Of a stretch of DNA of 64,000 nucleotides, positions 11,171 to 33,498 are shown piece by piece. The DNA is taken from assembly GCA_042216015.1 (NCBI GenBank), contig JBDGUI010000015.1, forward strand, positions 1 through 64,000. Direction: 5' to 3'. Every line of letters begins with the position of its first letter. Position 1 is the stretch's first letter. The notes beneath the pieces were generated by a model. It was not told where the DNA came from and made no database searches. It was given only the letters and a program-made list of their open reading frames with translations. The DNA comes from Halodesulfurarchaeum sp. (GTDB lineage: Archaea > Halobacteriota > Halobacteria > Halobacteriales > Halobacteriaceae). A program made the position numbers and the translations under genes.

Positions 11171-11267
11171 CGTGAAATGAGAAGTTAGGCGATGGATGGA
11201 TTCTCGGCGGCGGGAGTTACAAGCATTCCCATCCATTCTCGGCACGAAATGGAGGAAGGTGCTCCCC

Positions 11268-11312
11268 CGAATATATTCGCCCCCGGGATCCGCCCTCGAT
11301 CGAATATGTTCG
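11268..11312. promoter_or_regulatory. Two palindromes, CGAATATATTCG (11268-11279) and CGAATATGTTCG (11301-11312), in a divergent promoter
   Basis: Second site is 37 nt upstream of ATG 11350. Confidence 0.75.
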
Positions 11313-11349
11313 GCACAATCGTTGCCCGGTGTCGGGCCAAGCCCGATAC

Positions 11350-11607
11350 ATGGACTTCGAAGGCCTGCTGGAGGGAGATGGCGTCCCAGCCGAGAGCGAT
11401 CCGACGGTGGTCGACGTGCGAGATCTGCCGCCACCCGAACCCCTGCAGGAAACCCTGGGTACCCTCGAGGGGATGGAGGAGGACGGGCTGTTGGTTCAGG
11501 TCAACGATCGCCAGCCCCAGCATCTCTTCCCGATGCTCGAGGAGCGGGGATACGAACACGAGAGCATCGGCGACGATCCGGCCTATACGGCCATCTGGAA
11601 GGCCTGA
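11350..11607 (+). CDS. DUF2249 (SirA/TusA-like) protein
   Basis: VDVRDLPPPEPL..TL..L....LVQVNDRQPQHLFPMLEERGY. Confidence 0.8.
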   Translation: MDFEGLLEGDGVPAESDPTVVDVRDLPPPEPLQETLGTLEGMEEDGLLVQVNDRQPQHLFPMLEERGYEHESIGDDPAYTAIWKA

Positions 11608-11663
11608 TCCGAATTCGATCGAAGCGGTCTATTTCGATCGACTGCTTGTTCCACGCGATCCAT

Positions 11664-12917
11664 CTAGTCGCCCCACTCGATCAACCGTTGCTCGCCCTCG
11701 AGCGCCCGGAGGTCGCTCACCTCGCGAGTGACTTCGAGGGTTCCCCGGTACGTTCCCGACTCCCCGCGGAGCGCGTGGTAGTCGATGACCACGAACGCCC
11801 CGTCGTTCTGGATCCAGAATCGGGCCACGTCCTCTTCGTCGGCCTTGAACGCCTCGAGGATCTCCTCGACCGTGTCCACGCTCTCGGGCGGATGGCAGTT
11901 CTGTACCGTTCGGCCGATGATCGAGCCGGACCGGGGAAAAATCCGCTCCTCGGGGTTGTTGAAGTAGCGGACGCGGTCGTTCTCGTCGACGTAGGTGACG
12001 TCGACCGGAATCGTATCGAGCAGGAGCTGGAGTTGCTCGAGGTCGAGCGTTCCGGTGTCCAATCCGAACGCCACCGAGCCTGCGGACGGTTCGACGTCAC
12101 CACGGGCGTCGCCTGGAGTGGGCGCCGGTTCCGTCTCGGACCCTGTCTCGAGAAGCGGGAACGACGGTTCGATCTCGAAATACCCGATGTCTCTGCTCTC
12201 CCGCTGGATCCGTTCCCACTCGTGGTGGGTCAGGGTCTCGAGTGCCACCGGGAAGAGAATGGATTCCTCCTTGAATAGCAAATTCCGACTCACCGTCGTG
12301 AATCGAGTGACGAGCCGCGACAGCGTCTCCGGATTCGGTCCGGATTCCCCACTGAGGTCCTCGATGGTCGAGCGAAGCGACCGAAGATCGTCGTGAATGG
12401 ACCACATGACCCCGAGTGAGCGGTCGTGTTTCCAGTGTTCCTCGAGGTACGGAAACAGTTCGTTTTCCTTCCGAAGGAAGTGCCGATCGATCCCCTCCAG
12501 GGCGACGATGTGGTCCTGCAGGTCGGTCACCGCCTCGAGCGGCGGGGAGGAGGCCGCCGAGATCTTCCCCGCGGCCGTCTCGAGTGCCTCGACGTGGGAC
12601 TCGATCGCACGATTTTCCCGCAACATGTTGTCTATCGGGTGCCCGCGGTCGGGTCGTTCCCAGTCGTGGGCTTCGAGGGCCGGACGAAACGTCACGAGGA
12701 TCGGCTCGATCTCCTCCTTTACCGCCGGCACCGATATCCCATCTTCCAGTAATTCGTGCTCGACCACCAGCACGTCATAGGGCGTTACCGATTCGATCGC
12801 GGCTTCGTACTCCCCCGCGATCTCCGAGGCGGTGGCCCCCTCGTGAATCCGCCTGACGAACTCGAGGAGTGAGCGAACCCGGGGAGATTGCTCGACGTTG
12901 TCGATGAATTCGGACAT
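11664..12917 (-). CDS. DUF438 / hemerythrin-like / PAS domain protein
   Basis: GHPI..M..EN, H.LRKENELFPYLE, VMWS.HD, KEE.ILFP hemerythrin-like motifs; C-terminal PAS (IGRTVQNCHPP). Confidence 0.85.
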   Translation of the reverse strand: MSEFIDNVEQSPRVRSLLEFVRRIHEGATASEIAGEYEAAIESVTPYDVLVVEHELLEDGISVPAVKEEIEPILVTFRPALEAHDWERPDRGHPIDNMLRENRAIESHVEALETAAGKISAASSPPLEAVTDLQDHIVALEGIDRHFLRKENELFPYLEEHWKHDRSLGVMWSIHDDLRSLRSTIEDLSGESGPNPETLSRLVTRFTTVSRNLLFKEESILFPVALETLTHHEWERIQRESRDIGYFEIEPSFPLLETGSETEPAPTPGDARGDVEPSAGSVAFGLDTGTLDLEQLQLLLDTIPVDVTYVDENDRVRYFNNPEERIFPRSGSIIGRTVQNCHPPESVDTVEEILEAFKADEEDVARFWIQNDGAFVVIDYHALRGESGTYRGTLEVTREVSDLRALEGEQRLIEWGD

Positions 12918-13006
12918 GATTCAAGTGCGTCTCCATAGGTTTGAGATGGGCTAATACCTTCTGCAGGGGGCCTGAGAGGGCCGTCGAGGGCATACTAACG
13001 TTGTGC

Positions 13007-13018
13007 CATACATGTTCG
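13007..13018. promoter_or_regulatory. Degenerate palindrome CATACATGTTCG
   Basis: 39 nt upstream of ATG 13058; lies between divergent genes. Confidence 0.5.
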
Positions 13019-13057
13019 GCTTCACCGTTATGGATGGACACGAGATAGTCCCGGTAG

Positions 13058-13837
13058 ATGGACCGATACCGGTGGCTCCCGCCCATTCCACCCGAGCACG
13101 GGGCCAAAACGCTCCTGCTCGTCGCGCTCGCGACGCCGCCGAGCATCGGCATCGGTGCGGAAGCCCCCGACGAAGCCGGGGTAATCCCCGCTTATTTGCT
13201 CGTGATTGGAATCGGCGCTGGAACGATGCTGTTTCGCGAGGCGACCCGGCAGTTCCTCCAGGCGGCTGCCGGTGATCGGCGCAGAGACGGGGCCATTGCC
13301 GTTTTCGAAGCGGTGATTCTCGTCGGGTTAACGGGCGGTTTGATGGTCCTCGAGGGGACAAGATGGGGACTCCTGCTCCTCCTGCCGATGGGAGGGGCGA
13401 GTGAGGCCTGGCTCACTCGAAACGGGGGTTCGAAACCGCTATTGAAGGCGGGGGGTGGCGTCCTCGTGATTGGAATCCTCGTGCCAGTGGGCCTGCTCCT
13501 GTTAGGATTGACCGACCCCGCGACCCTGGTCGTCGGGTACGGGCTGTTTTCGGGATATCACCTGCTGGCGGTGCTTCGCGTCGGCGCCACGGTAGAAGCG
13601 CTGGAAGCGGTCCGATCGAATGTTCTCCCCGTTCCGACCGCCGCCGTGTTGGTCGCCGTCGTCGGGTACGCCGGCGGTGTCCTTGGAGTCGGAGCGCCGA
13701 TCGTCTTCGGTCTGTCCCTCCTCCGCTCGGGCCACCTGGAGCGGCGGGACGGGAAGCCGTCGCTCAAACGCCTCGGACAGGCAGAAGCAATGCTCTCCCT
13801 CGCCTTCGTGGGAGCCGGCCCATTCCTCCTGGCCTGA
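13058..13837 (+). CDS. YwiC-like integral membrane protein
   Basis: N-terminal IPPEHGA and C-terminal K.LG.AE motifs; hydrophobic throughout. Confidence 0.6.
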   Translation: MDRYRWLPPIPPEHGAKTLLLVALATPPSIGIGAEAPDEAGVIPAYLLVIGIGAGTMLFREATRQFLQAAAGDRRRDGAIAVFEAVILVGLTGGLMVLEGTRWGLLLLLPMGGASEAWLTRNGGSKPLLKAGGGVLVIGILVPVGLLLLGLTDPATLVVGYGLFSGYHLLAVLRVGATVEALEAVRSNVLPVPTAAVLVAVVGYAGGVLGVGAPIVFGLSLLRSGHLERRDGKPSLKRLGQAEAMLSLAFVGAGPFLLA

Positions 13838-13842
13838 CGGAT

Positions 13843-14490
13843 CTAGGCCGTCGTGCTGTCCCCGGACGGATCGTACCAGTCGACGAGATTTCGAATGGCC
13901 CGCCGGAGGATTTCGCTGGCCGTCGACTTGCTGACGCTCGTGCGATCGGCGACCGCCTGGATCGACGCCTCCCGGGGGATCTCGAAGTAGCCCGCCCGGT
14001 GGGCCGCTTCCAGAACCTCGGTCTGGCGAGTCGTCAAACCTGGCCCCGTCGATGTTTCGACGGCGTCGCCGATCCGATCGACGCGAAAGTCGAGGCCGGA
14101 TTCACGCAGGTGAGTGCTGAGCTGGGAGAGGCGATCCTGTGAGGTGGTGAACTCCCAAAGGGCGGTGCCTGCGGTGATGTGAATTGGGGTCTCGAGGGGA
14201 ACGCCCGCGGCCAGGAACGGTTCGAGAATGCTCGTCTCCGCCGTCTCGATCTGAAAGGCCGCCCTGTTGGTTCCCACCGAGAGCAGGTCGACCGCCCTGA
14301 GTTCAGCCCGTTTCTGCAATCGCTCGAGGATCGCACTCGGTTCGGCCGTCTCGGCCTCGATCACCGCGTGGCCGCTCGCCTCGTCCACGAGAATCGTTAG
14401 CACCCGAAAGTCCGTCTCGGAAAACCTGTGAGTGACGTCGTGGACCCAGGTTCCCTGGGGCATCTCGATCGTCAGTTTTGCCACCGGCAT
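13843..14490 (-). CDS. HTH-10 (Bat-like) transcriptional regulator
   Basis: LTTRQ.EVL.AA..AGYFE.PR, STASE.LRRA; paralog of 8644..9291. Confidence 0.9.
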   Translation of the reverse strand: MPVAKLTIEMPQGTWVHDVTHRFSETDFRVLTILVDEASGHAVIEAETAEPSAILERLQKRAELRAVDLLSVGTNRAAFQIETAETSILEPFLAAGVPLETPIHITAGTALWEFTTSQDRLSQLSTHLRESGLDFRVDRIGDAVETSTGPGLTTRQTEVLEAAHRAGYFEIPREASIQAVADRTSVSKSTASEILRRAIRNLVDWYDPSGDSTTA

Positions 14491-14530
14491 TCGATCGTGC
14501 CGACGATCGCAAACCAGGTATAAACGATCA

Positions 14531-14560
14531 CGCACATGTTCGGCTTCGCCCACATGTTCC
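14531..14560. promoter_or_regulatory. Two degenerate palindromes, CGCACATGTTCG (14531-42) and CCCACATGTTCC (14549-60)
   Basis: Each is 40 nt from the ATG of one divergent gene (14490 and 14601). Confidence 0.65.
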
Positions 14561-19463: not shown

Positions 19464-20123
19464 TTACAACTCCGTCGCGAGCGTCTTGATGAGTTTTGCC
19501 TCGACGGCGTTCAGCCGCTGTGAAAGCGCCGATCGCGTCACGTTCAGGTCCTCGGCGAGATCCGACAGCGACGCCTTCCGCGGGGTAGCGTAGTAGCCCC
19601 GACTGACCGCCTCCTCGACCACCTCACGCTGCTTGTCCGTCAACGAGATCTTCTCGGAGAGACGATCGCTTCGCTCGGTTCCGTTCCGCTCTCGTTCCGC
19701 CCCGCTCGTGAGTCGGGTCAATTGCCACTCGTCGCCGCTCTCGCGGAGTCGATCGGATAACTCGTAGAGTCGCTCCCGAGAGTCGATTACGGCGGTGATT
19801 TCGAGCGACCCGTCCGCGACGGAGATTTCGGCGGGGCTGATGCCGGGTTCGCACACGTGGGGACAGGTGCAGGCATCGGTAATCGAGCCGGACACGACGG
19901 TCCGATCGGTTCCCCGCTGGCTCCTGACCGTGAGAGAAACATGACACTGTTCGCCCACCAGCTGCACGTGACCGGTCAGCGCCCTTTCGCCGAACTCACG
20001 GACGGGACATGAGCTATTTGCCACGGGGTCGATTTCCAGTTCGGCCCACAATCGATCCCCCTCGCTCCGCGGCCCGGATTCTGTCGGGTCAAATTCCAGC
20101 GACGTCCGTTGGTGAGTGGCCAT
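19464..20123 (-). CDS. NarO/DmsR-like Cys-containing HTH-10 activator of anaerobic respiration
   Basis: N-terminal CPV..C..CTCPHVC; C-terminal LTDKQREVV..A...GYY.TPR.ASL.DLA. Confidence 0.75.
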   Translation of the reverse strand: MATHQRTSLEFDPTESGPRSEGDRLWAELEIDPVANSSCPVREFGERALTGHVQLVGEQCHVSLTVRSQRGTDRTVVSGSITDACTCPHVCEPGISPAEISVADGSLEITAVIDSRERLYELSDRLRESGDEWQLTRLTSGAERERNGTERSDRLSEKISLTDKQREVVEEAVSRGYYATPRKASLSDLAEDLNVTRSALSQRLNAVEAKLIKTLATEL

Positions 20124-20211: not shown

Positions 20212-20476
20212 TGTGTCCGCATACCGACACCTGTGGGCCGTGTCCCCGATAAGGTACTGTGCAGATATCTAGAGGCAGGCAAAAATCGACATCTAGTTGT
20301 CTTGAATCGGTTCGAAAAACCGAAAATCACGACGGATATGTCGAGGATCGAAACGGCCCGACGAACCGGACCCTACCGAGTCTTCGGAAGACGACCGCTT
20401 CTCACGAGAGCGGATCGAGGCCTGGAGACCAGATCCAGCGTCTCGATCACGATCGATATCCCTTCTCACCCCCCTC

Positions 20477-23038
20477 TCACTCCCGTCCGGCCTCGAACAG
20501 GGCACCAGCAATTTTCAATTGGGCGTGTCGCAGGTGGTGGTTCACCGTGGAACCCGCGACGCCGAGGTCCGCGGCGAGATCCTCGATGGTGCTCCGCCGC
20601 GGCCACTCGAAGTAGCCGGCGAAGTACGCCGATTTGAACACCTCGAACTGTCGGTCGGTGAGGAGTTCACGGATGGAGTCGGTCGTCTCGGCCCCGAGCA
20701 CGGCCTGTCGTTCACTCTCTGTTTTCGCCACGAAGTCCGCATCGTCGTCTTCGGACTGAACGAATCCGACCGTGGTCTCGATGTCGGTGTTCCGGGGCAC
20801 CTCCAGGGTGTAGGTTCCGCTGCCGTCCTCGATGTCGATACCCTGTAACCGGGCCCGTCGGTGGGCGAATTCCGAGATGACGGACTCCTCGCCGAAGGAC
20901 ACCTTGACCCGATGAGGCGGGTTTTCGACGGCGATCGGGGACACGTCCACGATTCCCGGTTCGGAGCCGGCAAGTTCGAGAACCTCGGTCGGGTCGGCCC
21001 CCTCGACCTGCAGGTAGGCATCGATGGACTCCCGCTTTGGACCCGCGACGACGCCGTCGAGCCAGATGTGACAGCCGAGTTCCGCTGCGGTTCGGACGAG
21101 GGGAAACTCCGTGTCCGTGACGTCGAAGGTGAGTTCGACGACGGTGTCCGCGAAGAGCAGTTTTTTGTCCGTGATGGCGTCGATCGAAAACCCGACGGTT
21201 TTCCCGAGCGTCCGCAATCCGGATCGCTCCCGTTCGCTGAAGGCGTACTCCCGGTTCGTCCGAACCACCAGAACGCCGAAGACGGTTTCTCCGTGCGTGA
21301 GCGGGATTGCGGCGACAGCGTGATCGGTCTCACCGGATTCACTCCCGTCGATTGCGGTGTGGGAGACCGAATGGCTGATCTGCAACTGTCCGGTCTCGAA
21401 TGCGGCCTCGAGGGTGTCATACAGGGGATCGGACGCCTCGATCACGGCCGATTCGCCAGCTCCCTGTCGATCGGCGGTCGTCCGAACAGTGAGTGTGGGG
21501 CCCCCGGCCCGGTGAGCGGCAATCCACGCCGAGTCATAGAGCCCGGAATCGGTGAGGGACGTACACAGAGTGGACTCGATGCGGTCCTGATTCGAGGATT
21601 CGACCAGTTCCTGGGTGATGGCCAGGACGAGATCAGTGATCCGGTTGAGCGATTCGAGTTCGTCACGCTGCTGGCGCAGTGTCCGCTCGCGCTCCTTTCG
21701 CTCGGTGATGTCCTCGATGACGATCATCACGCCCTCGAGGGTCTCTTCCCCGCCCGGGACCGCCGCAAGCGACAGACTCACGTCGACGCGGTTGTCGGAT
21801 TTCGTCCGCCACTGCGCCTCCACGCCGGAGATCGGACCCTCGACGATCGCCGCGGAGAGGAGTTCTCGGAAGGACTCCCGTTCCGGGTCGGGGATCGCCG
21901 GATTCGCCGACCCCTCGACTGCGGCGGCCTCCCAGCCGAATATGTCCTCCGCAGCGGGGTTCCAGCGTTTGACCTGCCCCTTCGGCCCTGCGATGAGGAT
22001 GCCAGCCGGTGAGGCCTGAATCAACGCCTCCAGCTTTTCGGTCGTGGTTCTGAGTTCGTCGATGTAGGCCGGCAGATCGGTCCGCATCTCCTCGAGCGAG
22101 CGCCCCAGTTCACCGGGGATCCGCTCCTCGAAGACTGGGTCGTCGAACTTTCGGCGGGCGAGGGCCTGGGCCTGTCGGGAGGCCGTTTCGTGATAGGCCT
22201 GGACCGCCTCGAACGAACGGGACAGTTGGGCGAGTTCCGAGCGCTGTTTGTGATCGGGTAGCGAGGTGTCCAGAGGCAGGTCCACTCCAGAGACGGATTC
22301 GGTCTCCCCCCTGGCCAATCGACGGCCCACACGGGCGATGTCCACCATCGGCAGCCCGAGGTACCGTCTCGCCGCAAACGCGCCGAGCCCCGCCACGAGC
22401 AGGTCGATGACGAGGAGGACGAAGAGGACCCGCACGAGCACGGCCCGCCGCTGACGGAGGACGACGGCAAATTCGGCGGTGATGGTGTCGCTCAGCGAGA
22501 GCAAGACGTCACTTTGCTGGTTCACGTACCGGAGCGAGCGGCGAAATTTCGTCGTGTCCGGATCCGCGGTCAGCACGGTTTTGACGTGGGGCCGGTACTC
22601 GGTCCAGGCTGTCTGGAGCTGGCCGAGCTCGGGTTCCAGTCGAGGGGGTGCCTCGATTAACTTCTCGCCGCGAAGGATCACCTGGGGGACTCCTCTCGAT
22701 TCGGCATTGGGATTCAGTTTCTGGTCGGGGACGGTTCCGCCCGCCATCAACGACTCGAGGTTCTGCTCGAACCGGTCCCGGGCGACGCGCAGTTGATCGC
22801 GAGCGTAATCGGGATTCTCGCCACGGGAGATCTTGTTCGCGAGACGGGCCATGCGCTGGCTGAGCATTCGCTCCTGTCCGGCGATGTTGACCGAATTGCC
22901 CAACTGCTCGGCCTGCTGGTGGTAGACGTAAATCACCCCGATGTTGAGACTCGCAACGAGAATCATCACCACGAGCAGCAGGGAGACCTTCTCGAAGAGC
23001 TTCAGGCGGGTGTTGAGCGAGGTGAGGAGTCCGGACAT
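20477..23038 (-). CDS. Membrane-bound one-component regulator: TM-PilJ/NarX-type sensor-TM-HAMP-PAS-GAF-Bat HTH10
   Basis: VNIAGQERMLSQRM P/N-box between two TM helices; PAS (WNPAAEDIFGW); GAF; LTDRQ..AY.AGYFEWPR..T..DLA. Confidence 0.85.
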   Translation of the reverse strand: MSGLLTSLNTRLKLFEKVSLLLVVMILVASLNIGVIYVYHQQAEQLGNSVNIAGQERMLSQRMARLANKISRGENPDYARDQLRVARDRFEQNLESLMAGGTVPDQKLNPNAESRGVPQVILRGEKLIEAPPRLEPELGQLQTAWTEYRPHVKTVLTADPDTTKFRRSLRYVNQQSDVLLSLSDTITAEFAVVLRQRRAVLVRVLFVLLVIDLLVAGLGAFAARRYLGLPMVDIARVGRRLARGETESVSGVDLPLDTSLPDHKQRSELAQLSRSFEAVQAYHETASRQAQALARRKFDDPVFEERIPGELGRSLEEMRTDLPAYIDELRTTTEKLEALIQASPAGILIAGPKGQVKRWNPAAEDIFGWEAAAVEGSANPAIPDPERESFRELLSAAIVEGPISGVEAQWRTKSDNRVDVSLSLAAVPGGEETLEGVMIVIEDITERKERERTLRQQRDELESLNRITDLVLAITQELVESSNQDRIESTLCTSLTDSGLYDSAWIAAHRAGGPTLTVRTTADRQGAGESAVIEASDPLYDTLEAAFETGQLQISHSVSHTAIDGSESGETDHAVAAIPLTHGETVFGVLVVRTNREYAFSERERSGLRTLGKTVGFSIDAITDKKLLFADTVVELTFDVTDTEFPLVRTAAELGCHIWLDGVVAGPKRESIDAYLQVEGADPTEVLELAGSEPGIVDVSPIAVENPPHRVKVSFGEESVISEFAHRRARLQGIDIEDGSGTYTLEVPRNTDIETTVGFVQSEDDDADFVAKTESERQAVLGAETTDSIRELLTDRQFEVFKSAYFAGYFEWPRRSTIEDLAADLGVAGSTVNHHLRHAQLKIAGALFEAGRE

Positions 23039-23182
23039 GGCTCGCGAGGGCCGTTCGAATACCGTCGCGGCGGCGAGAAGAAAGTATCGCCGAACGGGAT
23101 CGGAACGCTGTGTGCGGACTGAAATCCGAACGGGTTGTTCCGGACGAAATCCGAACGGTTCGGAACCGTCAACCCTGCCGAG

Positions 23183-23956
23183 TTATCCGTCGGGAACCCG
23201 ATTGAGCATGTGATCATCCGCCGAGGCAGTGCCGGTGCCCTCCTCGAGGAGCGTCTCCACGTCTTCCCCTCTGGCACCGAGGGACCGTGCTGCAGTCTCC
23301 CGGACGACCTCAACCTCGGAATCGTCCTCCAGCGTGGACGTCAATGCCGCTTCCACCGCCTGATCGTCGTCGTACTGACCGAGCAGTTTGACCGCCCACT
23401 CCCGGACGCGGTCGCTCGGGTCCGAAAGCGCCACGAGCAACTCCTCGCGGGCCCCCTCCCGGCGAATCCGCGTGAGCGAAATCAGCGCGTTTCGTCGCAC
23501 GCCCTCGGCCTCATCCTCGAGGAGGGATTCGAAACGCTCCTCGAAGGCCTCTCGAGCCAACCGATCGAGGGCAACCGTGGCCTCGGCCCTGACCCACTGA
23601 TTCTCGTCGGTTTCCAGCACCTCGAGTACCACCTCGGGATCCCCATCGAGTTTCCCGAGCGCCTCGATTGCGAACTGTCGAACCTGGTCGTCCGGGTCGG
23701 TTCTGGCCAGCGAGACCAGTTTCTCCCTGACCGGGTCGCCCACCTCCCGTCCCGCAAGAGCGAGAGACGCCCGTCGTCGAGTGGGCGCGTCGGGGGCCTC
23801 GAGCATTTCCGCGAGGGTATCGACGGGAGCGTCCTCCACGGGCGTGACGTCAGCGGCCGAATAGTCGGCTGGCTCGGCGTTGCCGAGGGTGATGCCCCGA
23901 ACCTCCGTCACGCCATCCCTTCCGACCGCGTCTCGATCGGGAGACTCATCGGTCAT
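23183..23956 (-). CDS. HEAT/PBS-lyase repeat protein of the nar operon
   Basis: Repeated D...VR..A..ALG units. Confidence 0.85.
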   Translation of the reverse strand: MTDESPDRDAVGRDGVTEVRGITLGNAEPADYSAADVTPVEDAPVDTLAEMLEAPDAPTRRRASLALAGREVGDPVREKLVSLARTDPDDQVRQFAIEALGKLDGDPEVVLEVLETDENQWVRAEATVALDRLAREAFEERFESLLEDEAEGVRRNALISLTRIRREGAREELLVALSDPSDRVREWAVKLLGQYDDDQAVEAALTSTLEDDSEVEVVRETAARSLGARGEDVETLLEEGTGTASADDHMLNRVPDG

Positions 23957-24828
23957 CCAGGCACCCCCCGGTCGGAATCGGCCCCGCCGAAAAGAACGAG
24001 GGCGACCAGCACTGCCACCGCACCTGGAACTGTCGTGGGAACCCCGGCAGCGAGGACCAGCAGTCCGGCGAGTGCCAAGGAAATCGCCCCCCGTTCCACC
24101 CCGGAAGCGACGGCCGCCGTGCCACCGACCGCTCCGAGCGCCAGGAGGACGAGCGGGAGGTCAATGATCCCGAGTCCGAGAAGCGAAATCGCTGCCGTGA
24201 TCACTGGCGATAGGAGCCCGATCCCGAAGACCACCGTCCCCGCGAGGACGCCAGCCCCGAGGCTTCGGGCGGAGATGCCCGTGTACGCTGGCGTCCCCGC
24301 AATTGCGAGCGCCATGCTGAGCGATCCGATCCCCCGGGTGAGTGCCGGTTCGACGCCCAGACTCGCGCTCAACGAAGAGAGGACCCCCACCACGAAGGCA
24401 ATGGTCACACCGGACTGCAGGAGTGTCCGTCCGTCGGTGGAGGCGGGGCGATGGGACACGGCCAGCAGCACGCCCGCGACCCCGAGCGCGGCGATCGAGG
24501 GCCCGGTCGCGGTCGGTGAAACGAGTGCCAGCCCGCCAAACACGCCGGCTGCAAGCATGGCGACGCGGACGAGGGGCGCCGACGCGGTGTACCCCAGCGC
24601 GAGTGCGGCCATTGCCGGGCCGGCCAGCGCCGCGGCCTCGATCGGCGCGCCGAGGGGCTGCAGGGGCATCCTGGGCCCGAGGGGCGTGTTCGTCCCGATG
24701 GTGAAGAGGAGCTGTGCCACCGTTGGCACCACCGCGAGCAACCCGGCCCATCGATGGATCGTTCCCCGGTCGCTTCGATCGGGTGCGGGCTCGGCGACGG
24801 TCCGCCCACCGAGAATCGTGCCGGTCAT
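23953..24828 (-). CDS. Uncharacterised integral membrane protein (nar operon)
   Basis: Hydrophobic 291 aa ORF, translationally coupled at both ends. Confidence 0.7.
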   Translation of the reverse strand: MTGTILGGRTVAEPAPDRSDRGTIHRWAGLLAVVPTVAQLLFTIGTNTPLGPRMPLQPLGAPIEAAALAGPAMAALALGYTASAPLVRVAMLAAGVFGGLALVSPTATGPSIAALGVAGVLLAVSHRPASTDGRTLLQSGVTIAFVVGVLSSLSASLGVEPALTRGIGSLSMALAIAGTPAYTGISARSLGAGVLAGTVVFGIGLLSPVITAAISLLGLGIIDLPLVLLALGAVGGTAAVASGVERGAISLALAGLLVLAAGVPTTVPGAVAVLVALVLFGGADSDRGVPG

Positions 24829-25469
24829 TCGGCGTTCACCGCGGGGTTGGATTCGAGGGCCGTGAGATCAGCCCGGACGAAGCGGACCGCGAAGTCCACG
24901 ACTTGCTCGTAGATCCCGGTCTCCGGTTCGCTCTCGACGGCTTGCTGCACGGACGTGACGAACGGTTCCAGGTGCCGATCGAGAAAGTCCGCTCGAGCCC
25001 GTCTGGCATCGGTTTCGCCGGTCGCCGCGAGGCGCGAGAGGTACCCGGCGAACTCCAGTTCGAGCGGGAGATAGTCGTGATGTTCCCGCTCATCCTCGTC
25101 GATCTCGACGTCGAAGTAGTCGTAGGCGCGGGCGAGATCGAGGTTCACGTCGTTCCACGATCGGTCGACGTGTTCTGACTCGTAGAGCGGCACGACAGGG
25201 TCCGGATATCCGACGGCGAAGAGGTCGTTGAATCTGGCACAGAGGAGGTCGTAGTCGTCGTCGGTCTCGACAGCGGGGACCTCCACCTCGAGATCCGTGC
25301 GCTCGAGGATCGCTTCGAGTTCCGCGAAGAGGGTGCCGTTGGCCAGTCCCTCGGCGACCTCCCGGGGAGGCTCCTCGAACAGGCTCGCCAGGACACCATA
25401 GACCGTTCCGCGGGCGAGATCGGCTGTCTCCTCGACCGGGCGCTCGTCGGTGTCTGTCAGCGTTGCCAT
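24825..25469 (-). CDS. narJ: TorD/NarJ-family molybdoenzyme chaperone
   Basis: PLYES.H, E..DYLPLELEF..YL, FLDRHL. Confidence 0.8.
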   Translation of the reverse strand: MATLTDTDERPVEETADLARGTVYGVLASLFEEPPREVAEGLANGTLFAELEAILERTDLEVEVPAVETDDDYDLLCARFNDLFAVGYPDPVVPLYESEHVDRSWNDVNLDLARAYDYFDVEIDEDEREHHDYLPLELEFAGYLSRLAATGETDARRARADFLDRHLEPFVTSVQQAVESEPETGIYEQVVDFAVRFVRADLTALESNPAVNAE

Positions 25470-25473: not shown

Positions 25474-26295
25474 CTATCGCCCCCGTCGGGCTCGCGCAGC
25501 GATCAGGAGCGCGACCACGATCCCGATTCCCGCGATCGCCCAGAAGAGATACTGGGCGGTCGGCCCGGTGGGCTCCGGGCCGAGCGGGAGGGTGTACCAC
25601 TGGCTGTACGCGTGGTGTCCGGCCCGTTCGTCGTTCGCCCCGTTCCAGACCGCGAAGGCGACCTCCACGTCGGTTTCGAGATCGAAGTCGGCTCGCGCGT
25701 CCTGACCGGTGCGGAGCGAGCGTTCGAAAACGACCGTCCACGTCCCACTCCGGTGACTGGCGCTGGTTTCGATGGTGGTGTTCTCCATCGCGGTGATGCT
25801 TCCGGGATTGTACCCGCCGGCGAGGGCCTCCTCGGGCCCGGAGGCAGCGGTCCAGTACCAGAGGTTCACCGGCGTCGCCTGACTGCCGAGCTGGACGCTC
25901 GGTTCGGTCGAAACGTTCGCGGGGAGCTGGACGGCCGCCCCATCGCTAAAGGCCCGCAGTGACGACTCGGTGGCGTTCACCGTCGTGTCTTTCCACCGCA
26001 TCCAGACGTATATCTTCGAATCCGTGTAGGCAGTTTTGACCGAGACCGCCTCGGTTGCCACCACGTTCGCACCCGGGAGTCCGGATGGAGCACTCGTCAG
26101 GGGAATTTCGCGGCTCTCGATGTCACTCCAGGCCGTCCCGTTCGGTGTCGAGAGTTCCGCGTCCGCCCCCGGTTGATGGCTCACTGGCACCTGGTTCGCC
26201 GGCACGCCGGCAGCGATCGCCGGGAACAGCACGGCGGTGACCAGCACCAGGAGGGCCACCCCGAGGACGGAACCGGTAAAGCGAGTGGGACTCAT
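25474..26295 (-). CDS. Heme b-binding (ethylbenzene dehydrogenase gamma/DOMON-like) subunit with C-terminal anchor
   Basis: Signal peptide; W.D.T, FSDG.AVQ, VAFAVWNG.N.ER. Confidence 0.8.
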   Translation of the reverse strand: MSPTRFTGSVLGVALLVLVTAVLFPAIAAGVPANQVPVSHQPGADAELSTPNGTAWSDIESREIPLTSAPSGLPGANVVATEAVSVKTAYTDSKIYVWMRWKDTTVNATESSLRAFSDGAAVQLPANVSTEPSVQLGSQATPVNLWYWTAASGPEEALAGGYNPGSITAMENTTIETSASHRSGTWTVVFERSLRTGQDARADFDLETDVEVAFAVWNGANDERAGHHAYSQWYTLPLGPEPTGPTAQYLFWAIAGIGIVVALLIAARARRGR

Positions 26296-27344
26296 TTTTC
26301 GAACACCTCCAGCCGATACTGTTGGGCGGGATTCTCACTCGTGAGGATCTCCATGACCTCGCTGTCCCCGCCGCGATTGACCTTCGCCCGCTCTCGCTCG
26401 AGGGTGTTCATCGTGTCGTGGACCCGTTCGCCGAAGAGGTCCTCGAGGTACGAGCGGGGAATGCGATCGATGTCGGTGGTCTCCCCGGCACTGTCGATCT
26501 GCGGGGGTGCAAACGGCGGGATGTAGTAGACGTTCGGATCGGTCCGGTACTCCGGATGGAGCGGCAGCGCGACCTCGTACTGCTCGACCAGCTTGTAGAT
26601 GGGTCCCTGCCGGTCGTCGAGGAAGCCCACCATCCGAAGCTGGGTCGTGCACTCCTCCGCACAGATCGGTCCGTGCACCTCGCCGTCCGGCCCCTCGCCC
26701 TCGAGGCGTGGATAGCAGAAGATACACTTCTCCGAGCTCTTCTTTGCCGTGTTGTAGTAGACCTTCTTGTAGGGACACCCCTCCACGCAGTACCGGTATC
26801 CCCGGCATCGTTCCTGGTCCACCAGGACGACGCCGTCCTCGGCCCGCTTGTAGATCGCCTGTCGCGGACAGGCCTCCACGCAGGTCGGATGCGTACAGTG
26901 ATTGCAGATCCGGGGCAGGTAGAAGTAGTAGGAGTTCGGGTGTTCGCCCGCGCCCTGATCCTCGTCCCAGTTCGGGCCCCACTCCGGAGTCCCGCCCTCC
27001 GGCCGCAGGGCCTCCGTGCTCGGGGACCTGAGTGCCTCCTCGTAATTGAATTCCCACGCCTCACCGTACTCCTCCTTTGCGGGCAACTGCCCGTCTTCGA
27101 CGTCGTTGCGTGAATCGGATTTCCAGCCCCCGCCCTTCTCCTCCCAGTCCTTCGGATATCCGGCACCGGGACGGGTTTCGACGTTGTTCCAGTACATGTA
27201 CTCCGCGCCGTCGTGCTCAGTCCACGTCGTCTTGCAGCCGACCGTACAGGTCTGACAGCCGATGCACTTGTTGAGGTCCATCACCATCGCGACCTGGTGG
27301 TCGATGCCTTCGGCGAGTTCCAGGGTGGGATCAGTGCTGCTCAT
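26292..27344 (-). CDS. narH: Respiratory nitrate reductase beta (Fe-S) subunit
   Basis: DLNKCIGCQTC, YMYWNNVET.PG, PRICNHC.HP.C, CRGYRYCVEGCPY, EKCIFCYPR. Confidence 0.92.
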   Translation of the reverse strand: MSSTDPTLELAEGIDHQVAMVMDLNKCIGCQTCTVGCKTTWTEHDGAEYMYWNNVETRPGAGYPKDWEEKGGGWKSDSRNDVEDGQLPAKEEYGEAWEFNYEEALRSPSTEALRPEGGTPEWGPNWDEDQGAGEHPNSYYFYLPRICNHCTHPTCVEACPRQAIYKRAEDGVVLVDQERCRGYRYCVEGCPYKKVYYNTAKKSSEKCIFCYPRLEGEGPDGEVHGPICAEECTTQLRMVGFLDDRQGPIYKLVEQYEVALPLHPEYRTDPNVYYIPPFAPPQIDSAGETTDIDRIPRSYLEDLFGERVHDTMNTLERERAKVNRGGDSEVMEILTSENPAQQYRLEVFEK

Positions 27345-30181
27345 TCACCCTCACCTCCCTTCTTCTCGACCTCGACGCGGACGTCGCTGTTCACGCCCGT
27401 CGGCCCCCAGAAGTTGGGGAAGAAGTGCAGGTGTTCGCCACTGTCCGCTGGATACTGGATGAGCTGTGTCGGTTTCATCGCCATGGACGTGACGCTGTTG
27501 AAGTTCACGTCGTCGGGGAACTGGTAGTACTCCCAGCCGAAGGGCATCTTCGCGACGCCCTCCTCACCGCTTGGATAGAGTTTCGCCATCGCAGTGAACG
27601 AACTCTCGTCGTTGTAGACCTCCACCTCCTCGCCGTCCTCGATGTCGCGTCGACTCGCGTCTTCGGGATTCAGATACACGAGCGGTTGGCCCCGGTTGAG
27701 TCGGAGCATGTACCGATCGTCACGCCAGGTCGAGTGGATCGAATAGCGACCGTGTGGGGAGTTGTAGCGCAGCGGATATTTCTCGGGGTCCTGTTCGTTG
27801 ATCGGCCCCTTGTGGGTCGGCAATTCCTCGCCGAGATCGAGGAACCAGTCGTGATCGATGTAGTACTGCTGGCGTCCGCTGAACGTCGGCCAGGGCTCTT
27901 TGTCCTGCACGAAATCCATCCATGGGGTGTAGGTTTCCCCCTCCTCGAGGTCCGAGGTCCAGTGATCCCCGGCGGCCTCGAACCGCTGGGGCTGCTCGAC
28001 CGTCTCATCGAAAGTGATCGGGTTCTCGCCGGTTGGGTTCGTCTCCGTCGAGTGTTCGAGGATGAACTCGGAGGCGGCCCGGCCCGAATCGAGCGCACCT
28101 GGCTCGTCCTCGATCCAGTCCCTGACGTAGTCGTCGTGAATCGACGTGAGGTCGATCTGGCGGTCGAAGGAGCGATCCGGGATCGGGTCGAGATCGCGTT
28201 CCCGCGCCTTCTCCTGGATCCGCTCGGCGAGGAGCCGGAAGATTTCCCAGTCGGACTTGGACTCGCCGAGCGGCTCGATTGCCTTCGTGAACGGGTGAAC
28301 GTAGGTGTGCATGTCCGTCATCGAGAGGTCGTACTTCTCGTAGTTCGACGCCGCCGGGAGGACGTAATCGGCCCACTTCGCGGTGCTGTCCATCCGGTAG
28401 TTCACGTCGACGATCAGATCGAGTTTCGGCCAGAGGGTCTCCCTCACGGCGGTACCGCCCTTGGCCTGGTTGAAGTAGTTCCCCCGCCACGCGATGAAGA
28501 TGCTCGGATCTGGTCGGGTGCCGTCCGCACGCTCCTTGGGATACAGTGGCATCCAGTCCTTCGACACCGACTCCTCGATGCGCTCGGCGAGTTCCGGCTG
28601 TTCGTCCATGATACCCGCGTGATAGTACGTCCAGAGCGTCGTCGGCATCCCGCGAACGTTCCCGGTGGGGAAGGAGAGTTTCTTCCACCCGTTGACCGTC
28701 CAGATCTTCTCCTGGCCGACGTAGTGGTCGAGTCCCGTGCCTCGGCGGCCGATGTGGCCGGTTAGCGTGACGAGCAACTGGATCGACCGGTTGCCGAGGT
28801 CGTTGTGGTACCAGTCGTTGACGCCCTTGCCGTGGATGATCTTCCCCCGATCCGCGCGGGCGAACTCCCGGGCGATCCGCTGGATGGTCTCCTCGCCCAC
28901 GCCCGTTACGTCGTAGACGTACGACGGCGTGTAGGTGGACAGTTCCTCGCGGAGTCGGTTCCAGACCGACCGAACCTGAACCGACTCGCCTCCGACGAGG
29001 TCGACGGAACGATCGACGTCGAGGGACGGGTCGAAGTCGAGTTCGATGCTCGCCTCGGGATCGTACTTCCCGGAGCGGTCGCCGAGAGAGGCGGGCGCGA
29101 TCCGGAGTTCGCCCGCTTGATCCTGCATCACGAGGACCTTCTCGTTCCCGGAGAGCCCAGGAACCTCCGAGGCGCGGAGGAGCTTGCCGGTGTCCTCCCG
29201 GACCAGCATCGGCATGTCGGATTGTTCTTTCAGGTGAGCCTCGTCGTATCGCCCCTCCTCGACGATGGTCCGGGCCATCCCGAGTGCGAGGGCGGCGTCG
29301 GTGCCCGGATCCGGCGAGATCCACTCGTCGGTGTGGATCGCCGTCTGGGAGTAATCGGTGAAGACTCCGACCGTCTTGGCGCCCTCGTAGCGAGCCTCGA
29401 GGAAGTACTTGGCGTCGGGGATCCTGGTGACGTCGATGTTGGATCCCCAGGCGATGATATAATCGGCGTGGTACCAGTCCGCACTCTCGGCATTGTCGGT
29501 CTGGTGGCCCCACGTGATGGGCTGGCCCGGCGGCAGGTCGGAGTACCAGTCATAGAAGGAGTGGCTAACCCCGCCCAGCAGGTTGATCATCCGCGATCCG
29601 CTGGCGAAGGAGGCGGGGGACATCGCGGGGATCGGGGTGAACCCGCTGATCGCGTCGTAGTTCCCTGCCGCGACCGTGTCGATCAGCTCCGCTGCGATGT
29701 CGTCCAGGGCCTCGTCCCAGGAGACCTGCTTCCACTTGCCTTCCCCCCGTTCACCGGTTCGCTTGAGGGGATGAGTCACCCGCTGGGCGCCGTGAACGTA
29801 ATTCTTGTAACAGGCACCCTTGTTACATCCCCGTGGATTCGGATCCGGCAGACCGAGGTCGAATCGCGGATAGTCCGCAGCCTGTTCCTCGCGCCAGACC
29901 TGTCCGTTCTTGACGTAGACGTCCCAGGAACAGCTCCCGGTGCAGTTGACGCTGTGGGTACTCCGACCGATCGAGTCCCAGTCCCACTTCTCCCGGTAGA
30001 GGTCCTCCCACTCCCGGTAGGGATAGTTCCCGATCGGATCCTTGGCGACCTGCAGTCGGTCCATCTCCGAGAGCGTCTGTGCGGCCCCGACGCCACTCGC
30101 GCCGATGAGCCCCGCCGCTCCGATTCCCTTCAGGAAGTCTCGACGCCCGGTCGTGTTGTCGTCAGTTGGTTCGTTGCTCAT
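27341..30181 (-). CDS. narG: Tat-exported respiratory nitrate reductase alpha subunit (type II DMSO reductase family)
   Basis: RRDFLK Tat motif; HSVNCTGSC..C FS0 motif; FYDWYSDLPP Asp ligand; start MSNEPT. Confidence 0.9.
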   Translation of the reverse strand: MSNEPTDDNTTGRRDFLKGIGAAGLIGASGVGAAQTLSEMDRLQVAKDPIGNYPYREWEDLYREKWDWDSIGRSTHSVNCTGSCSWDVYVKNGQVWREEQAADYPRFDLGLPDPNPRGCNKGACYKNYVHGAQRVTHPLKRTGERGEGKWKQVSWDEALDDIAAELIDTVAAGNYDAISGFTPIPAMSPASFASGSRMINLLGGVSHSFYDWYSDLPPGQPITWGHQTDNAESADWYHADYIIAWGSNIDVTRIPDAKYFLEARYEGAKTVGVFTDYSQTAIHTDEWISPDPGTDAALALGMARTIVEEGRYDEAHLKEQSDMPMLVREDTGKLLRASEVPGLSGNEKVLVMQDQAGELRIAPASLGDRSGKYDPEASIELDFDPSLDVDRSVDLVGGESVQVRSVWNRLREELSTYTPSYVYDVTGVGEETIQRIAREFARADRGKIIHGKGVNDWYHNDLGNRSIQLLVTLTGHIGRRGTGLDHYVGQEKIWTVNGWKKLSFPTGNVRGMPTTLWTYYHAGIMDEQPELAERIEESVSKDWMPLYPKERADGTRPDPSIFIAWRGNYFNQAKGGTAVRETLWPKLDLIVDVNYRMDSTAKWADYVLPAASNYEKYDLSMTDMHTYVHPFTKAIEPLGESKSDWEIFRLLAERIQEKARERDLDPIPDRSFDRQIDLTSIHDDYVRDWIEDEPGALDSGRAASEFILEHSTETNPTGENPITFDETVEQPQRFEAAGDHWTSDLEEGETYTPWMDFVQDKEPWPTFSGRQQYYIDHDWFLDLGEELPTHKGPINEQDPEKYPLRYNSPHGRYSIHSTWRDDRYMLRLNRGQPLVYLNPEDASRRDIEDGEEVEVYNDESSFTAMAKLYPSGEEGVAKMPFGWEYYQFPDDVNFNSVTSMAMKPTQLIQYPADSGEHLHFFPNFWGPTGVNSDVRVEVEKKGGEGE

Positions 30182-30366
30182 GAGTTTTCGGTGATGAAGA
30201 CAGTGCTCACTCCCAGCAACACGCCGACGAGGGCGAGTGCCAGCCCGGGAGCGGATTCGATGCCAGTTTCGAGTCCGACCGCGATGAGGGCCACCCCGCC
30301 GAGCTTGGTCCCTGCGTCGAGCAGGCGATAGCGGCAATGTCCTCCCGAAAGCGACCGGGATTTCAT
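30178..30366 (-). CDS. Small two-TM membrane protein of the nar operon
   Basis: [25 protein letters not shown]..; overlaps both neighbours by ATGA. Confidence 0.65.
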
Positions 30367-31679
30367 GCCCGCCCACCTCCGGATCGGCCGCCAAGAATCG
30401 CATAGGTCAGGAGACCGCCTGCTATCGGGACGAGTAGTATCGCCCAGCGCAGGTACGGCGTCAGGACCGTCGTCGACATGCCAAGCGCGCTCCCGAGCAG
30501 GTTGTTCATCCCGGCCAGCGAGGCCACGAGGATCATCGAGATCGCCCCGATGCCGACTGCCGTCCGTCGCGGGGCCTCGAGCGGGCTCTCGGTGAAATGC
30601 TCGGGCGCGTCCCGCTGGTCGATGAAGGGCCACAGGACGACCGCGCCGATCACGACCGTCGGGAATGCGATCCCGCCCCAGAACTCCGCGGAGAGTTCAA
30701 TCCCAGCGACGTGAATCGTCGTCCAGCCGGGCAGGACCTTGAGGAAGCCGTACACCCACATCAGGAACCAGTCAGGCATGACCACTCCCGGCGTGCTCGC
30801 CGGATCGTTTGGTCCGTAGGCCACGATATTGTGGACCGGCAGGAATCCGGCGAGCAGGGAGAGCACTCCGACCGTGAGCAGGAAGACCACCGCCCCGACC
30901 GCCGCCTGATTCGGGTAGGCGGGGAGTCCCAGGACGACCGAGTCGTCGTCCTCGGCCACGTCGGCGCCGGCCGCCTCGTCCGCGGTCCGCTCGCCCTCCG
31001 TGTGCTTCTGTCGGACAAGGATGGCCATGTGCACGGCGAGTAGGGCCATGATCGCCAGTGGGATGAGCAACACGTGGAGGAAGAACAGGCGCGGGATCGT
31101 CCCGGAGGCGGGGAATTCTCCCGCGAACACGAGTTTCGCGACGAAGTCACCCACCACCGGGATCGAGGTACTGAGGTTGTACCCGATCCCCGTCGCCGTC
31201 GCCCCGAACTCGTCGAACGGGAGGGCGTATCCGGTGTAACTCGCACCCATCGCCAGCACCGCAAGGAGCACGCCCACGACCCAGTTGATCTCCCGTGGAT
31301 TCCGGTACGCGGCCGTGAAGTACACCCGGAACATGTGAAGGGCGAGCGAGGCGATGAACAGGTGAGCCGCCCAGTGGTGCAGCCGACGAATGAACATCCC
31401 GAACGGAATCCCGTAGGTGATGTGCAGGACGCTCACGAACGCCGCCGGGAGTTTCTCGCCCTGGAACTGGTCGACGACGCCCTGGTAGACCACCTCCGTC
31501 GTGCTCGGTTCGTAGAAGGTGCCGAGGTAGATCCCAGAGAGGACGATGGCGACGAAGGAGAACAGGGCCACCTCGCCGAGGAGGAACGAGTCTTCGGCCG
31601 GGAACGCCTTTCCCAGCAGGCCCCGCTCGTCCTCGAGGTGCAGACGCTCGCTCACCCAGGAACGAACGCTCACGGTCAC
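30363..31679 (-). CDS. narC: Cytochrome b (bc-complex type) of the nar operon
   Basis: [32 protein letters not shown] (PEWY-like). Confidence 0.88.
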
Positions 31680-32263
31680 CCACCCCCCGGACCGATCGGT
31701 CCCTCGAAATTGCCCGTTGCCATGAGAAACCCGTCACTGGAGAGCGTGATCGGCAGCTGGGGCAGCGGGCGCGGGGCCGGTCCATCGATCACCCTCGCCC
31801 CGTTGGTCGGGTCGTACTTCGCGAAGTGGCAGGGACAGACCAGCGTGCCGTCCTCCTCGGCCTCCGCGACCATGCATCCCGCATGGGTGCACACCTTCGA
31901 GTACGCCGCATACCCCGCGATGGTGAACGCCAGGTTCGTCGGCTCCGCGTAGGCCGATTCCTCGCGTCTGACGAGCAGCGTCGGCGCATCGGAGACCCCG
32001 GGGTGGCTCTCGGGAAACACGGTCATCCTGGATCCCACCTCCAGTGCGTCGGCCCTGAGCCGATCCCCGTTCTCGTCGACGAGATAGGTGCCCTCGGAGT
32101 AAATCTTGCCCGTGAACTCCCGGGAGAGCACATCAGTCATTCCCGTGGCTGGCACCGAGAGCGCGAGCGCGGTCGAGACACCCCCGAGACCCAGTGCGGC
32201 CTTTGCCACGTCACGTCGCTGCCACTTGCCGATCGTTTCGTCGGTGTCAGATTCCTTAGCCAT
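31676..32263 (-). CDS. narB: Rieske [2Fe-2S] protein
   Basis: CTHAGC and CPCH..Y motifs, [10 protein letters not shown] motif near N-terminus. Confidence 0.88.
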
Positions 32264-32825
32264 GATGTCGCTCCTCCGCCACGATGACGTGTGGCACGAA
32301 CCAGGCCGAATAGGCGGCGACCCCACCCGCGAGTGTCAGAAACATGCCGGTTACGTAGAGCCCGATGTACTGCGTGCGTGCCAGCGTGGAGAACTCGAGG
32401 ATCGCGAGTGCGGCGAAGGCAACCGTCGCCGCGATCGATGCCACGACGACCCAGAGCCCCTCCTTGCTCTCCACGGCCCCCACGAATTCGGCAAGAGAGC
32501 GGGAGTCGGTCTGAAACCAGGGTCGAACTCCGTCCCCCGTGACCTCGCTTCCGGGCTCCGTCGTCCCTGGGCCATGCATGAATCGATGGAATCCCGCGAG
32601 CAGGACCGTGAGCAATCCGAGCGCGATCCAGATAACGACCCCCACCTGTGCCGGGGTGAACTCGTCGGGCGTGTCGATGATCGATTGCAGGGGACGCATG
32701 TCGGTTTTGCTCGTGTCGATCTCGACTTCGCCCGCCGCCTCACCGGTCGGCTGGAGGGCGGCAAACCACGTGGGGGCCAGGACGGCGAGGACCACGAGGG
32801 CGATTGCGATTGTCCGTGTATTCAT
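32256..32825 (-). CDS. Membrane protein, first gene of the nar operon
   Basis: Four hydrophobic segments; overlaps the Rieske start. Confidence 0.7.
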   Translation of the reverse strand: MNTRTIAIALVVLAVLAPTWFAALQPTGEAAGEVEIDTSKTDMRPLQSIIDTPDEFTPAQVGVVIWIALGLLTVLLAGFHRFMHGPGTTEPGSEVTGDGVRPWFQTDSRSLAEFVGAVESKEGLWVVVASIAATVAFAALAILEFSTLARTQYIGLYVTGMFLTLAGGVAAYSAWFVPHVIVAEERHHG

Positions 32826-33486: not shown

Positions 33487-33498
33487 CGAACGTATTCG
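33487..33498. promoter_or_regulatory. Palindrome CGAACGTATTCG
   Basis: 38 nt upstream of ATG 33448. Confidence 0.7.

Follow-up and report, generated by a model that had tools for sequence, protein, structure and literature searches.

A candidate transmembrane one-component nitrate sensor beside a nar operon in Halodesulfurarchaeum

A membrane-anchored regulator gene with Bat-type output

We examined a 64,000-nucleotide stretch of DNA from Halodesulfurarchaeum sp. (assembly GCA_042216015.1, contig JBDGUI010000015.1, positions 1 to 64,000), referred to below as the window, with attention to a gene on the minus strand (20477..23038) that may encode a transmembrane sensor of nitrate. The gene lies directly downstream of, and on the same strand as, a group of genes identified below as a nar (nitrate reductase) operon, and is itself directly followed by a gene for a smaller regulator, here called the partner. 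Its open reading frame (ORF) is intact, starts with ATG and encodes 853 residues, with a GC content at third codon positions (GC3) of 0.80. Because this GC3 value is accompanied by 16 other protein clusters with the full architecture, the ORF is a real gene and not a chance frame.

Concerning topology, the hydropathy profile displayed two transmembrane (TM)-like segments at residues 10-41 and 192-225, separated by a loop of 160 residues. Three Lys/Arg residues precede the first segment and the sequence ARRYLG directly follows the second. Taking this short basic N-terminus and the position of ARRYLG into account, the loop should face outward. We placed TM1 at about residues 18-38 (22925..22987, minus strand as for all features of this gene; inside a helix spanning residues 14-72 of the structural model described below) and TM2 at about residues 200-222 (22373..22441; inside an unbroken model helix of residues 163-242). 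Between them is a predicted extracytoplasmic PilJ four-helix-bundle domain at about residues 39-199 (22442..22924).

The proteins of the window were scanned against Pfam, with matches judged by the gathering thresholds (GA; 26.6 bits for PilJ, 25 for HAMP and 27 for DmsR_N). PilJ (PF13675) was matched at residues 41-163 (E 7e-12, 45.8 bits, above GA), which is the sole PilJ match in this genome. TM2 is followed by a region of residues 223-336 (22031..22372) that comprises a HAMP-like segment and a signalling helix. The HAMP match itself (residues 225-278) scored 19.5 bits, under its GA, and we therefore use the term HAMP-like; a profile of 13 N-terminal sequences from the sensor family (A1), run against solved structures, matched the HAMP domains of NarQ and Af1503 weakly (E 0.015-0.06). 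The remainder of the protein consists of a PAS domain (residues 337-449, 21692..22030; Pfam PAS_4, PAS and PAS_9, with the PAS match spanning residues 334-449; TIGR00229, 64.5 bits), a GAF domain (residues 489-620, 21179..21574; GAF_2, 37.3 bits and GAF_3, 36.8 bits), a BAT domain (PF15915; residues 631-778, 20705..21148; 96.7 bits) and an HTH_10 DNA-binding domain (PF04967; residues 793-844, 20507..20662; 65.7 bits). All four are above their cut-offs and stand in the order found in Bat. Neither a histidine kinase core (HisKA-type, HATPase_c) nor the signalling domain of methyl-accepting chemotaxis proteins (MCPs; PF00015) was detected by Pfam in the 853 residues. A first-pass annotation, made from the DNA letters without database searches, had proposed two TM helices flanking a PilJ-type box, followed by HAMP-like, PAS, GAF and HTH_10 segments. 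Pfam and hydropathy agree with this layout, in which HAMP is weak and to which BAT is to be added.

The sensor half and its relatives

The extracytoplasmic domain carries the motif VNIAGQERMLSQRM at residues 50-63. Within it, VNIAGQERMLSQ (residues 50-61, 22856..22891), which includes Arg57, resembles the N-box of nitrate receptors. When the whole protein was used as a single-sequence query against solved structures, only weak PAS matches were obtained, with McpN at E 0.2, and a profile was needed. Profile A1 matched the periplasmic region of PilJ (E 4.7e-7), McpN (E 1.3e-5) and NarQ (E 0.015). In its alignments, VNIAGQERMLSQ stands opposite ETINVAGAQRMLSQKMAR of McpN and AINIAGSLRMQSYRL of NarQ. 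Arg57 aligns with R61 of McpN, and also with the residue altered in the NarQ R50K entry (5jeq), making it the equivalent of NarQ R50. R61 of McpN is described as hydrogen-bonding nitrate at the axis of the dimer, with an R61A change abolishing binding, and the N-box pattern published in the same paper is [IVL]-[ND]-x-A-G-x-Q-R-M-L-[ST]-Q (PMC6381276). The focal VNIAGQERMLSQ fits nine of the ten fixed positions, Glu56 replacing the fixed Gln before the Arg. The Arg and nine of the ten fixed positions are kept in all 17 members of the sensor family. Because of this Glu we do not file the protein under the strict N-box; it falls outside strict membership, yet very probably works like a member. 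The first-pass annotation had named a NarX/McpN-type box with a conserved Arg. The Arg and the motif stand, with the reservation that one fixed position differs (Q to E).

The structure of residues 1-300 was modelled with AlphaFold2 (mean predicted local distance difference test (pLDDT) 77.7, exceeding 90 over most of the bundle). The model is a four-helix bundle flanked by two long helices that are continuous with the TM segments. In a Foldseek search, fragments of NarQ covering sensor, TM and HAMP took the first six places (TM-score 0.48-0.66, normalised by target length, at E 6e-5 to 9e-4), ahead of the ligand-binding domain of McpN (TM-score 0.71-0.72 on the same scale); NarQ and McpN are the two proteins with which a comparison had been suggested beforehand. 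As four-helix bundles are common, the fold alone says little; the ranking of the matches together with the motif is more telling. The A1 alignment also showed that the bundle contains an insert of ~20 residues (103-123) specific to the family.

Two copies of residues 39-200 were then modelled together. The score was 0.79, against 0.00 for the best of three controls, and the runs agreed in at least 98% of contacts with a partner-chain pLDDT of at least 89. In calibration, 20 of 30 proteins solved as same-chain pairs attained the mark, as did one of 23 solved as single chains. G54, Q55, R57 and M58 lie on the axis of the modelled dimer, mirroring the McpN contacts G58, A59, R61 and M62; R57 touches R57 of the other copy, and E56 is outside the interface. 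Since the dimers of NarQ and McpN have already been solved, the pass may come from likeness to these proteins alone.

To define the family, residues 1-300 were used as a query in a word-indexed search of 5.8 billion proteins. The family is small, consisting of 17 clusters including that of the window, all with the same set of Pfam domains. The 16 others are 52-82% identical to the focal protein across the first 300 residues, and those with names derive from Halodesulfurarchaeum, Halanaeroarchaeum and Natrialbaceae assemblies. We rejected a wide family suggested by matches to residues 1-300 in 124 of 401 genomes, as the matches listed are, with ten exceptions, confined to residues ~185-300, corresponding to the HAMP region of MCPs. 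Similarly, 22 further loci (L009-L030) encode stretches with 31-46% identity to residues 213-342, and all six of the HAMP-region relatives scanned, five from this set and one other, are MCPs.

A more distant circle of relatives was obtained with residues 1-230 in an exhaustive HMMER scan of 1.84 billion representatives, which gave 678 proteins at E values up to 0.001. Examination of the best 150 by local phmmer found a BAT/HTH_10 end in only two. A Pfam scan of 47 of the best 53 matches (six fragments shorter than 300 residues were left out) comprised 22 histidine kinases, 16 MCPs, five proteins with PilJ only, and one each with a SpoIIE phosphatase, an HD-GYP, a GGDEF-EAL and a BAT/HTH_10 output. 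Third in rank, behind the family clusters P0004 and P0139, was P0140, a 547-residue histidine kinase (PilJ, HisKA, HATPase_c). P0140 and the focal protein are 50% identical from residue 1 to residue 336, the exact point at which their similarity stops. P0140 contains a strict N-box and the same 20-residue bundle insert, and is likely a haloarchaeal NarX-like kinase. Shared residues 1-336 followed by divergence point to a swap of output between the two proteins, and the focal protein has the appearance of an input cassette of the NarX or McpN kind, joined at a single helix junction to a Bat module.

After the family itself and P0140, the nearest relatives of the sensor half are haloarchaeal PilJ-MCPs in which the MCP domain is present (L033-L036). 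We also observed two proteins of a different build (L038:12789-14375 and L039:13194-14399), which have no N-terminal TM region and carry PilJ at the C-terminus after HAMP, the former with an MCP signalling domain as well. Their PilJ domain would be cytoplasmic.

The nar operon, the partner gene and their linkage

Eight loci with a full-length sensor gene were compared, namely the window, L031 (the same stretch as L040), L032, L041, L042, L043, L044 and L050. The eight genomes are not independent, with three deriving from one genus. The sensor gene touches the nar operon in six of the eight loci, and does so in two orientations. In the window, L031 and L032, the sensor gene follows nar and is co-oriented with it. 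In L041, L042 and L050, the sensor gene is divergent and faces the first nar gene, the L041 contig stopping inside the cytochrome b gene. In L044, the contig ends 188 bp upstream of the sensor gene. A NarG orthologue (71-80% identity) is encoded in all eight genomes, against a background of at least 86 among 401 sampled Halobacteria, a count that is a floor because a stricter first look was applied. Two relatives, one of the same genus (G010) and one of the same family (G113), have neither the sensor nor this NarG, their best NarG matches being ~32% and ~30% identical, respectively. The synteny with nar that had been expected of homologues was thus found in most of the loci. As separate observations, another NarG-like stretch, this one in fragments, lies a few kb away from the intact NarG gene in the L050 genome, and in L031 (11851-14000, equal to L040:7851-10000) ~2.1 kb separates the HEAT-repeat gene from the sensor gene, a distance of 144 bp in the window.

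In the window, the genes preceding the sensor gene, all on the minus strand, begin with a conserved 189-residue membrane protein (narA-like; 32256..32825), found just upstream of the Rieske gene in five loci with 44-69% identity. This is followed by a Rieske iron-sulfur subunit (31676..32326; Pfam Rieske and NCBIfam), a cytochrome b subunit (30363..31679; Cytochrom_B_N_2, 160 bits), NarG, the alpha subunit of type II DMSO-reductase class (27341..30181; TIGR03479, 1233 bits), NarH with 4Fe-4S clusters (26292..27344; Fer4_11), a haem-b gamma subunit (25474..26295; EB_dh; TIGR03477, 168.5 bits) and a NarJ-type chaperone (24825..25469; Nitrate_red_del; TIGR03482, 153.5 bits). Two more genes travel with the operon and are kept in L031, L032, L042 and L050. 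One encodes a 291-residue protein (23953..24828) matching no Pfam or NCBIfam family, and the other, the last ahead of the sensor gene, a HEAT-repeat protein (23183..23956; HEAT_2, 135 bits). The haloarchaeal pNar set is complete at this locus, comprising NarG with a Tat signal, NarH, the haem-b subunit, NarJ, Rieske and cytochrome b. The families of these neighbours confirm the earlier proposal that the sensor gene stands just downstream of a co-oriented pNar operon. Two plus-strand ORFs with high GC3 (23135-24865 and 32539-32883) were dismissed as shadow ORFs opposite conserved genes.

As its relatives are ~945 residues long, NarG probably starts at Met75 of the long ORF; the Tat motif GRRDFLKG follows this Met. 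The protein is 68-75% identical to proteins named nitrate reductase alpha subunit in Halarchaeum nitratireducens, Halorhabdus, Halapricum and others, and 70% and 69% identical to its counterparts in Haloferax and Haloarcula, both listed under a generic molybdopterin-oxidoreductase name. Across haloarchaea, identity to orthologues is 68-77%. On these sequence grounds, we take the alpha subunit to be a NarG of the periplasmic type.

The partner gene (19464..20123, minus strand) encodes 219 residues with a Cys-rich, DmsR_N-like N-terminus and an HTH_10 domain (64.3 bits). Its DmsR_N match scored 22.9 bits, below GA, and that of the L043 orthologue scored 37.6 bits, above it. The gene directly follows the sensor gene in all eight loci, the L042 copy being weak (29% identity), and C39, C60-H61, C85 and C87 are kept in all seven full-length orthologues. 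The Pfam scan of the window revealed no TM segment or sensor domain in the partner. Judged by domain make-up, the protein appears to be of the NarO/DmsR type. The first-pass annotation had set the sensor in contrast to NarO, the one regulator described, and had overlooked this gene; the sensor seems rather to act beside a NarO-like partner.

The region upstream of the partner gene is 210-350 bp long and contains a double TCTAGA-type element beside a TATA-like box in seven of seven loci. In the window, these operator-like elements occupy 20260..20305 (no strand assigned), a block conserved in all seven aligned intergenic regions (A2), and at up to two mismatches the element occurs nowhere in the window outside the partner promoter. 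A crude k-mer search of six nar promoters gave nothing above shuffles. Inspection by eye of the nar core promoters (window 32826-33214; L031, L032, L041, L042 and L050) showed a palindromic, AT-rich box common to them, which reads CTTTATATTAAAG in the window and CCGGTAATATCCGG or CCTGTAATATACAGG in the other loci and is often preceded by TTAAA..CCC. This box is probably the TATA region, perhaps with an overlapping operator. The 144-bp gap before the sensor gene holds two exact copies of CCGTTCGGATTTC (23121-23133 and 23146-23158, 25 bp apart), with no other site at up to one mismatch in the window; the copies have no conserved counterpart in those orthologous loci that were checked.

Elsewhere in the window, a different element is enriched. 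The semi-palindrome CGAAYATDKTYG, reported at denitrification promoters of Haloferax mediterranei, gave 19 strand-matches at up to one mismatch, against 3.7 ± 2.4 in shuffled sequences, and none of 100 shuffles reached 19. Neither the nar promoter nor the sensor promoter of the window contains it. The sites lie at 6767-14542 and 33487-33498, at or near the 5' ends of genes for a 149-residue protein, a radical SAM/SPASM protein (TIGR04053), an HTH_10 regulator (8440-9291), a 156-residue protein, a 534-residue membrane protein with a weak COX1 match, a hemerythrin/DUF438/PAS_10 protein and a DUF2249 protein. These genes resemble a distinct regulon of N-oxide type next to nar. Further along the window (42988-53958) are genes for the small and large subunits of a NiFe hydrogenase, together with the maturation genes for HypF, HypB-like, HypD and HycI proteins, a set that fits a hydrogen-using anaerobe. 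The genome's sole strong match to the haem-copper oxidase family (G000:C8:10670-12007; 173 bits, in an open frame of 768 residues) may be a nitric oxide reductase of the quinol type. A copper nitrite reductase was not detected in the genome, which is 86.6% complete.

A proposed mechanism, its alternatives and known systems

In haloarchaeal denitrification, NarO is the only regulator described, as had been stated at the outset, and the sensors of nitrogen oxyanions are given as unknown in the accounts of PMC11218638 and PMC10062603. According to the latter, the nar promoters of Haloferax mediterranei require low oxygen and nitrate together, and the sensor of the nitrogen species is likewise unknown (PMC10062603). 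We consider it reasonably probable, with modest confidence, that the focal gene encodes a transmembrane one-component nitrate sensor which controls nar and is paired with a NarO-like redox regulator; the ligand, the DNA target and the activity are those that we infer from domains, motif and position. Of the first-pass annotation, the layout stands and the interpretation is supported in part, every sequence-based check that it suggested having turned out as it had foreseen. The PilJ bundle would dimerise outside the cell, on the side where Tat-exported NarG would meet its substrate, and nitrate, perhaps also nitrite, would be bound on the dimer axis between the two Arg57 residues. The signal would travel along TM2 and the HAMP-like relay and reach the Bat-type output with no phosphotransfer step; this output would activate the nar operon, the adjacent NarO/DmsR-like gene, or both. 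The Cys-rich partner would supply an anoxia or redox input, resulting in a 'nitrate AND low oxygen' logic. The protein may have originated from a NarX-like kinase or McpN-like transducer whose output was exchanged for a Bat module at residue 336. Put together, these steps make a scheme that we advance only tentatively, and which may well fail in one of its parts: the missing nitrate input of nar control in these lineages would be an N-box PilJ dimer with a kinase-free Bat output, joined to a NarO-like regulator by AND logic, and made by a kinase-to-Bat swap that gave a matched one- and two-component pair.

The following observations weigh against this proposal, as do several of those on which the alternatives below draw. 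In L043, no nar gene is present within 10 kb on either side of the sensor and partner genes. The sensor is found in only three of the 86 sampled NarG-bearing genomes and is lacking in 83, so that nar expression does not generally depend on it. With the family also being small, the sensor is no general answer for haloarchaea. The L050 sensor gene (10001-12576) displays a frame change at a run of five G after the SVTLRG codons, either an assembly error or a broken copy. Finally, the nar promoters share no DNA element that we could find with other promoters of the locus, and any direct target of the sensor is therefore putative.

One alternative is a cascade, in which the sensor would control the adjacent NarO/DmsR-like gene and the product of that gene would activate nar, with no direct action of the sensor at the nar promoter. 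We regard this as unlikely, although it is the alternative that fares best. The pair of sensor and partner is invariant in eight of eight loci, whereas adjacency to nar is seen in six and is absent in L043, and the double TCTAGA-type element stands in the partner's own upstream region. NarO, moreover, is the nar activator described in Haloferax volcanii (PMC11218638, PMC10062603). The element, however, is equally explicable as an autoregulatory site of the partner, which is known as NarO-like by its domains and not by orthology to the Haloferax volcanii protein, and an adjacency to nar that survives a change of orientation suggests a direct tie.

It is also conceivable, if rather improbable, that the outer domain does not bind nitrate but has another ligand or a structural role, and that nar is regulated through redox, oxygen or a small molecule at PAS or GAF, as is thought for Bat. 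The strict N-box is broken in the protein of the window; it is matched in eight of the 17 family members, and Glu takes the place of the fixed Gln in the nine others. NarG was found in only one of five sampled haloarchaeal genomes with PilJ-type MCPs or kinases, the other four lacking it. PilJ domains are not uniformly nitrate binders, the PilJ receptor itself being described as binding none (PMC6381276), and PAS and GAF are sensor modules in their own right, according to an account of Bat (PMC11218638). On the other hand, the Arg is invariant in the family, Glu56 is located outside the modelled dimer interface, and the top structural matches are two solved nitrate sensors. Also against this alternative, the PAS domain gave a weak match to FixL among solved structures in which Phe stands at the aligned position of the presumed haem-ligand His.

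A third alternative, which we find quite improbable, is that the neighbouring enzyme, and hence the signal, belongs to another oxyanion system (perchlorate, chlorate or selenate), the sensor reading that anion. The best solved match of NarG is indeed the perchlorate reductase PcrA, with 742 bits against 481 for E. coli NarG. Against this stands the identity to haloarchaeal orthologues given above, several of which are named nitrate reductase alpha. In addition, the relative G010, without the sensor, is also without the operon, and the Rieske and cytochrome b genes presumably stand in the order typical of haloarchaeal nar. In favour of this alternative and against a nitrate sensor, isolates of a related named genus, which may or may not carry the operon or the sensor, are reported not to grow with nitrate, but selenate likewise did not support their growth (PMC5437934).

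Lastly, release of the PAS-GAF-BAT-HTH part from the membrane by cleavage, to act as a soluble Bat-like factor, is very improbable: 630 cytoplasmic residues follow TM2 and this half is akin to soluble Bat-type regulators, as a general point in its favour, but the locus showed neither a protease gene nor a cleavage motif, the intact HAMP-like relay common to the kinase P0140 favours conformational signalling, and membrane-bound regulators such as ArnR exist in archaea (PMC6396743).

Returning to the proposed nitrate sensor, a literature search that was thin in subscription journals yielded no description of this archaeal architecture and none of a haloarchaeal nitrate sensor. According to the McpN paper, transcriptional regulators are among the proteins with N-box PilJ domains (PMC6381276), and the fusion of PilJ to a regulator is therefore not new in general. 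Of the claim that such a protein is undescribed, what stays is the archaeal architecture and its genomic context; only these are new, the parts being already known. The focal gene provides a concrete candidate for a sensor of nitrogen oxyanions, at least in a few anaerobic lineages. If the proposal is true, the protein would be a rare archaeal transmembrane receptor coupled straight to a DNA-binding domain, and P0140 and the focal protein would offer a natural comparison of one HAMP relay driving two kinds of output.

Among known systems, NarX and NarQ of E. coli (PDB 5iji and related entries) share with the focal protein a cytoplasmic N-terminus, TM1, a periplasmic four-helix bundle, TM2 and HAMP, as well as the motif with the nitrate-binding Arg. 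They differ in output, as the focal protein carries PAS-GAF-BAT-HTH_10 on the same chain, with no HisKA, HATPase or response regulator, and similarity to NarQ in sequence is weak even by profile. McpN of Pseudomonas aeruginosa (PDB 6gcv) is alike in its PilJ family, in the Arg equivalent to R61 and in a dimer with this Arg on the axis, as modelled here. The focal protein differs from it in having no MCP signalling domain, one N-box deviation and the extra bundle loop. NasR (NIT-ANTAR) and NreA (GAF) are bacterial nitrate sensors without a kinase domain of their own, with RNA-binding or kinase-modulating outputs; unlike the focal protein, they are soluble, sense in the cytoplasm and have unrelated sensor folds.

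Bat is a soluble protein tied to the bop regulon. It has PAS, GAF, BAT and HTH_10 in identical order, as described in PMC11218638. To this, the focal protein adds 336 N-terminal residues, with two TM segments, the outer sensor and the HAMP-like relay, and a location at nar. ArnR of Sulfolobus acidocaldarius has an N-terminal HTH and C-terminal TM helices. ArnR and ArnR1 resemble the focal protein as membrane-anchored archaeal one-component transcription factors (PMC6396743), and differ from it in domains, in their order and in target, the archaellum. NarO of Haloferax volcanii and DmsR of Halobacterium salinarum have in common with it an HTH_10 output and the control of anaerobic respiration, but are described as Bat-like regulators without PAS and GAF, and NarO as a sensor of oxygen rather than nitrate (PMC11218638, PMC10062603).

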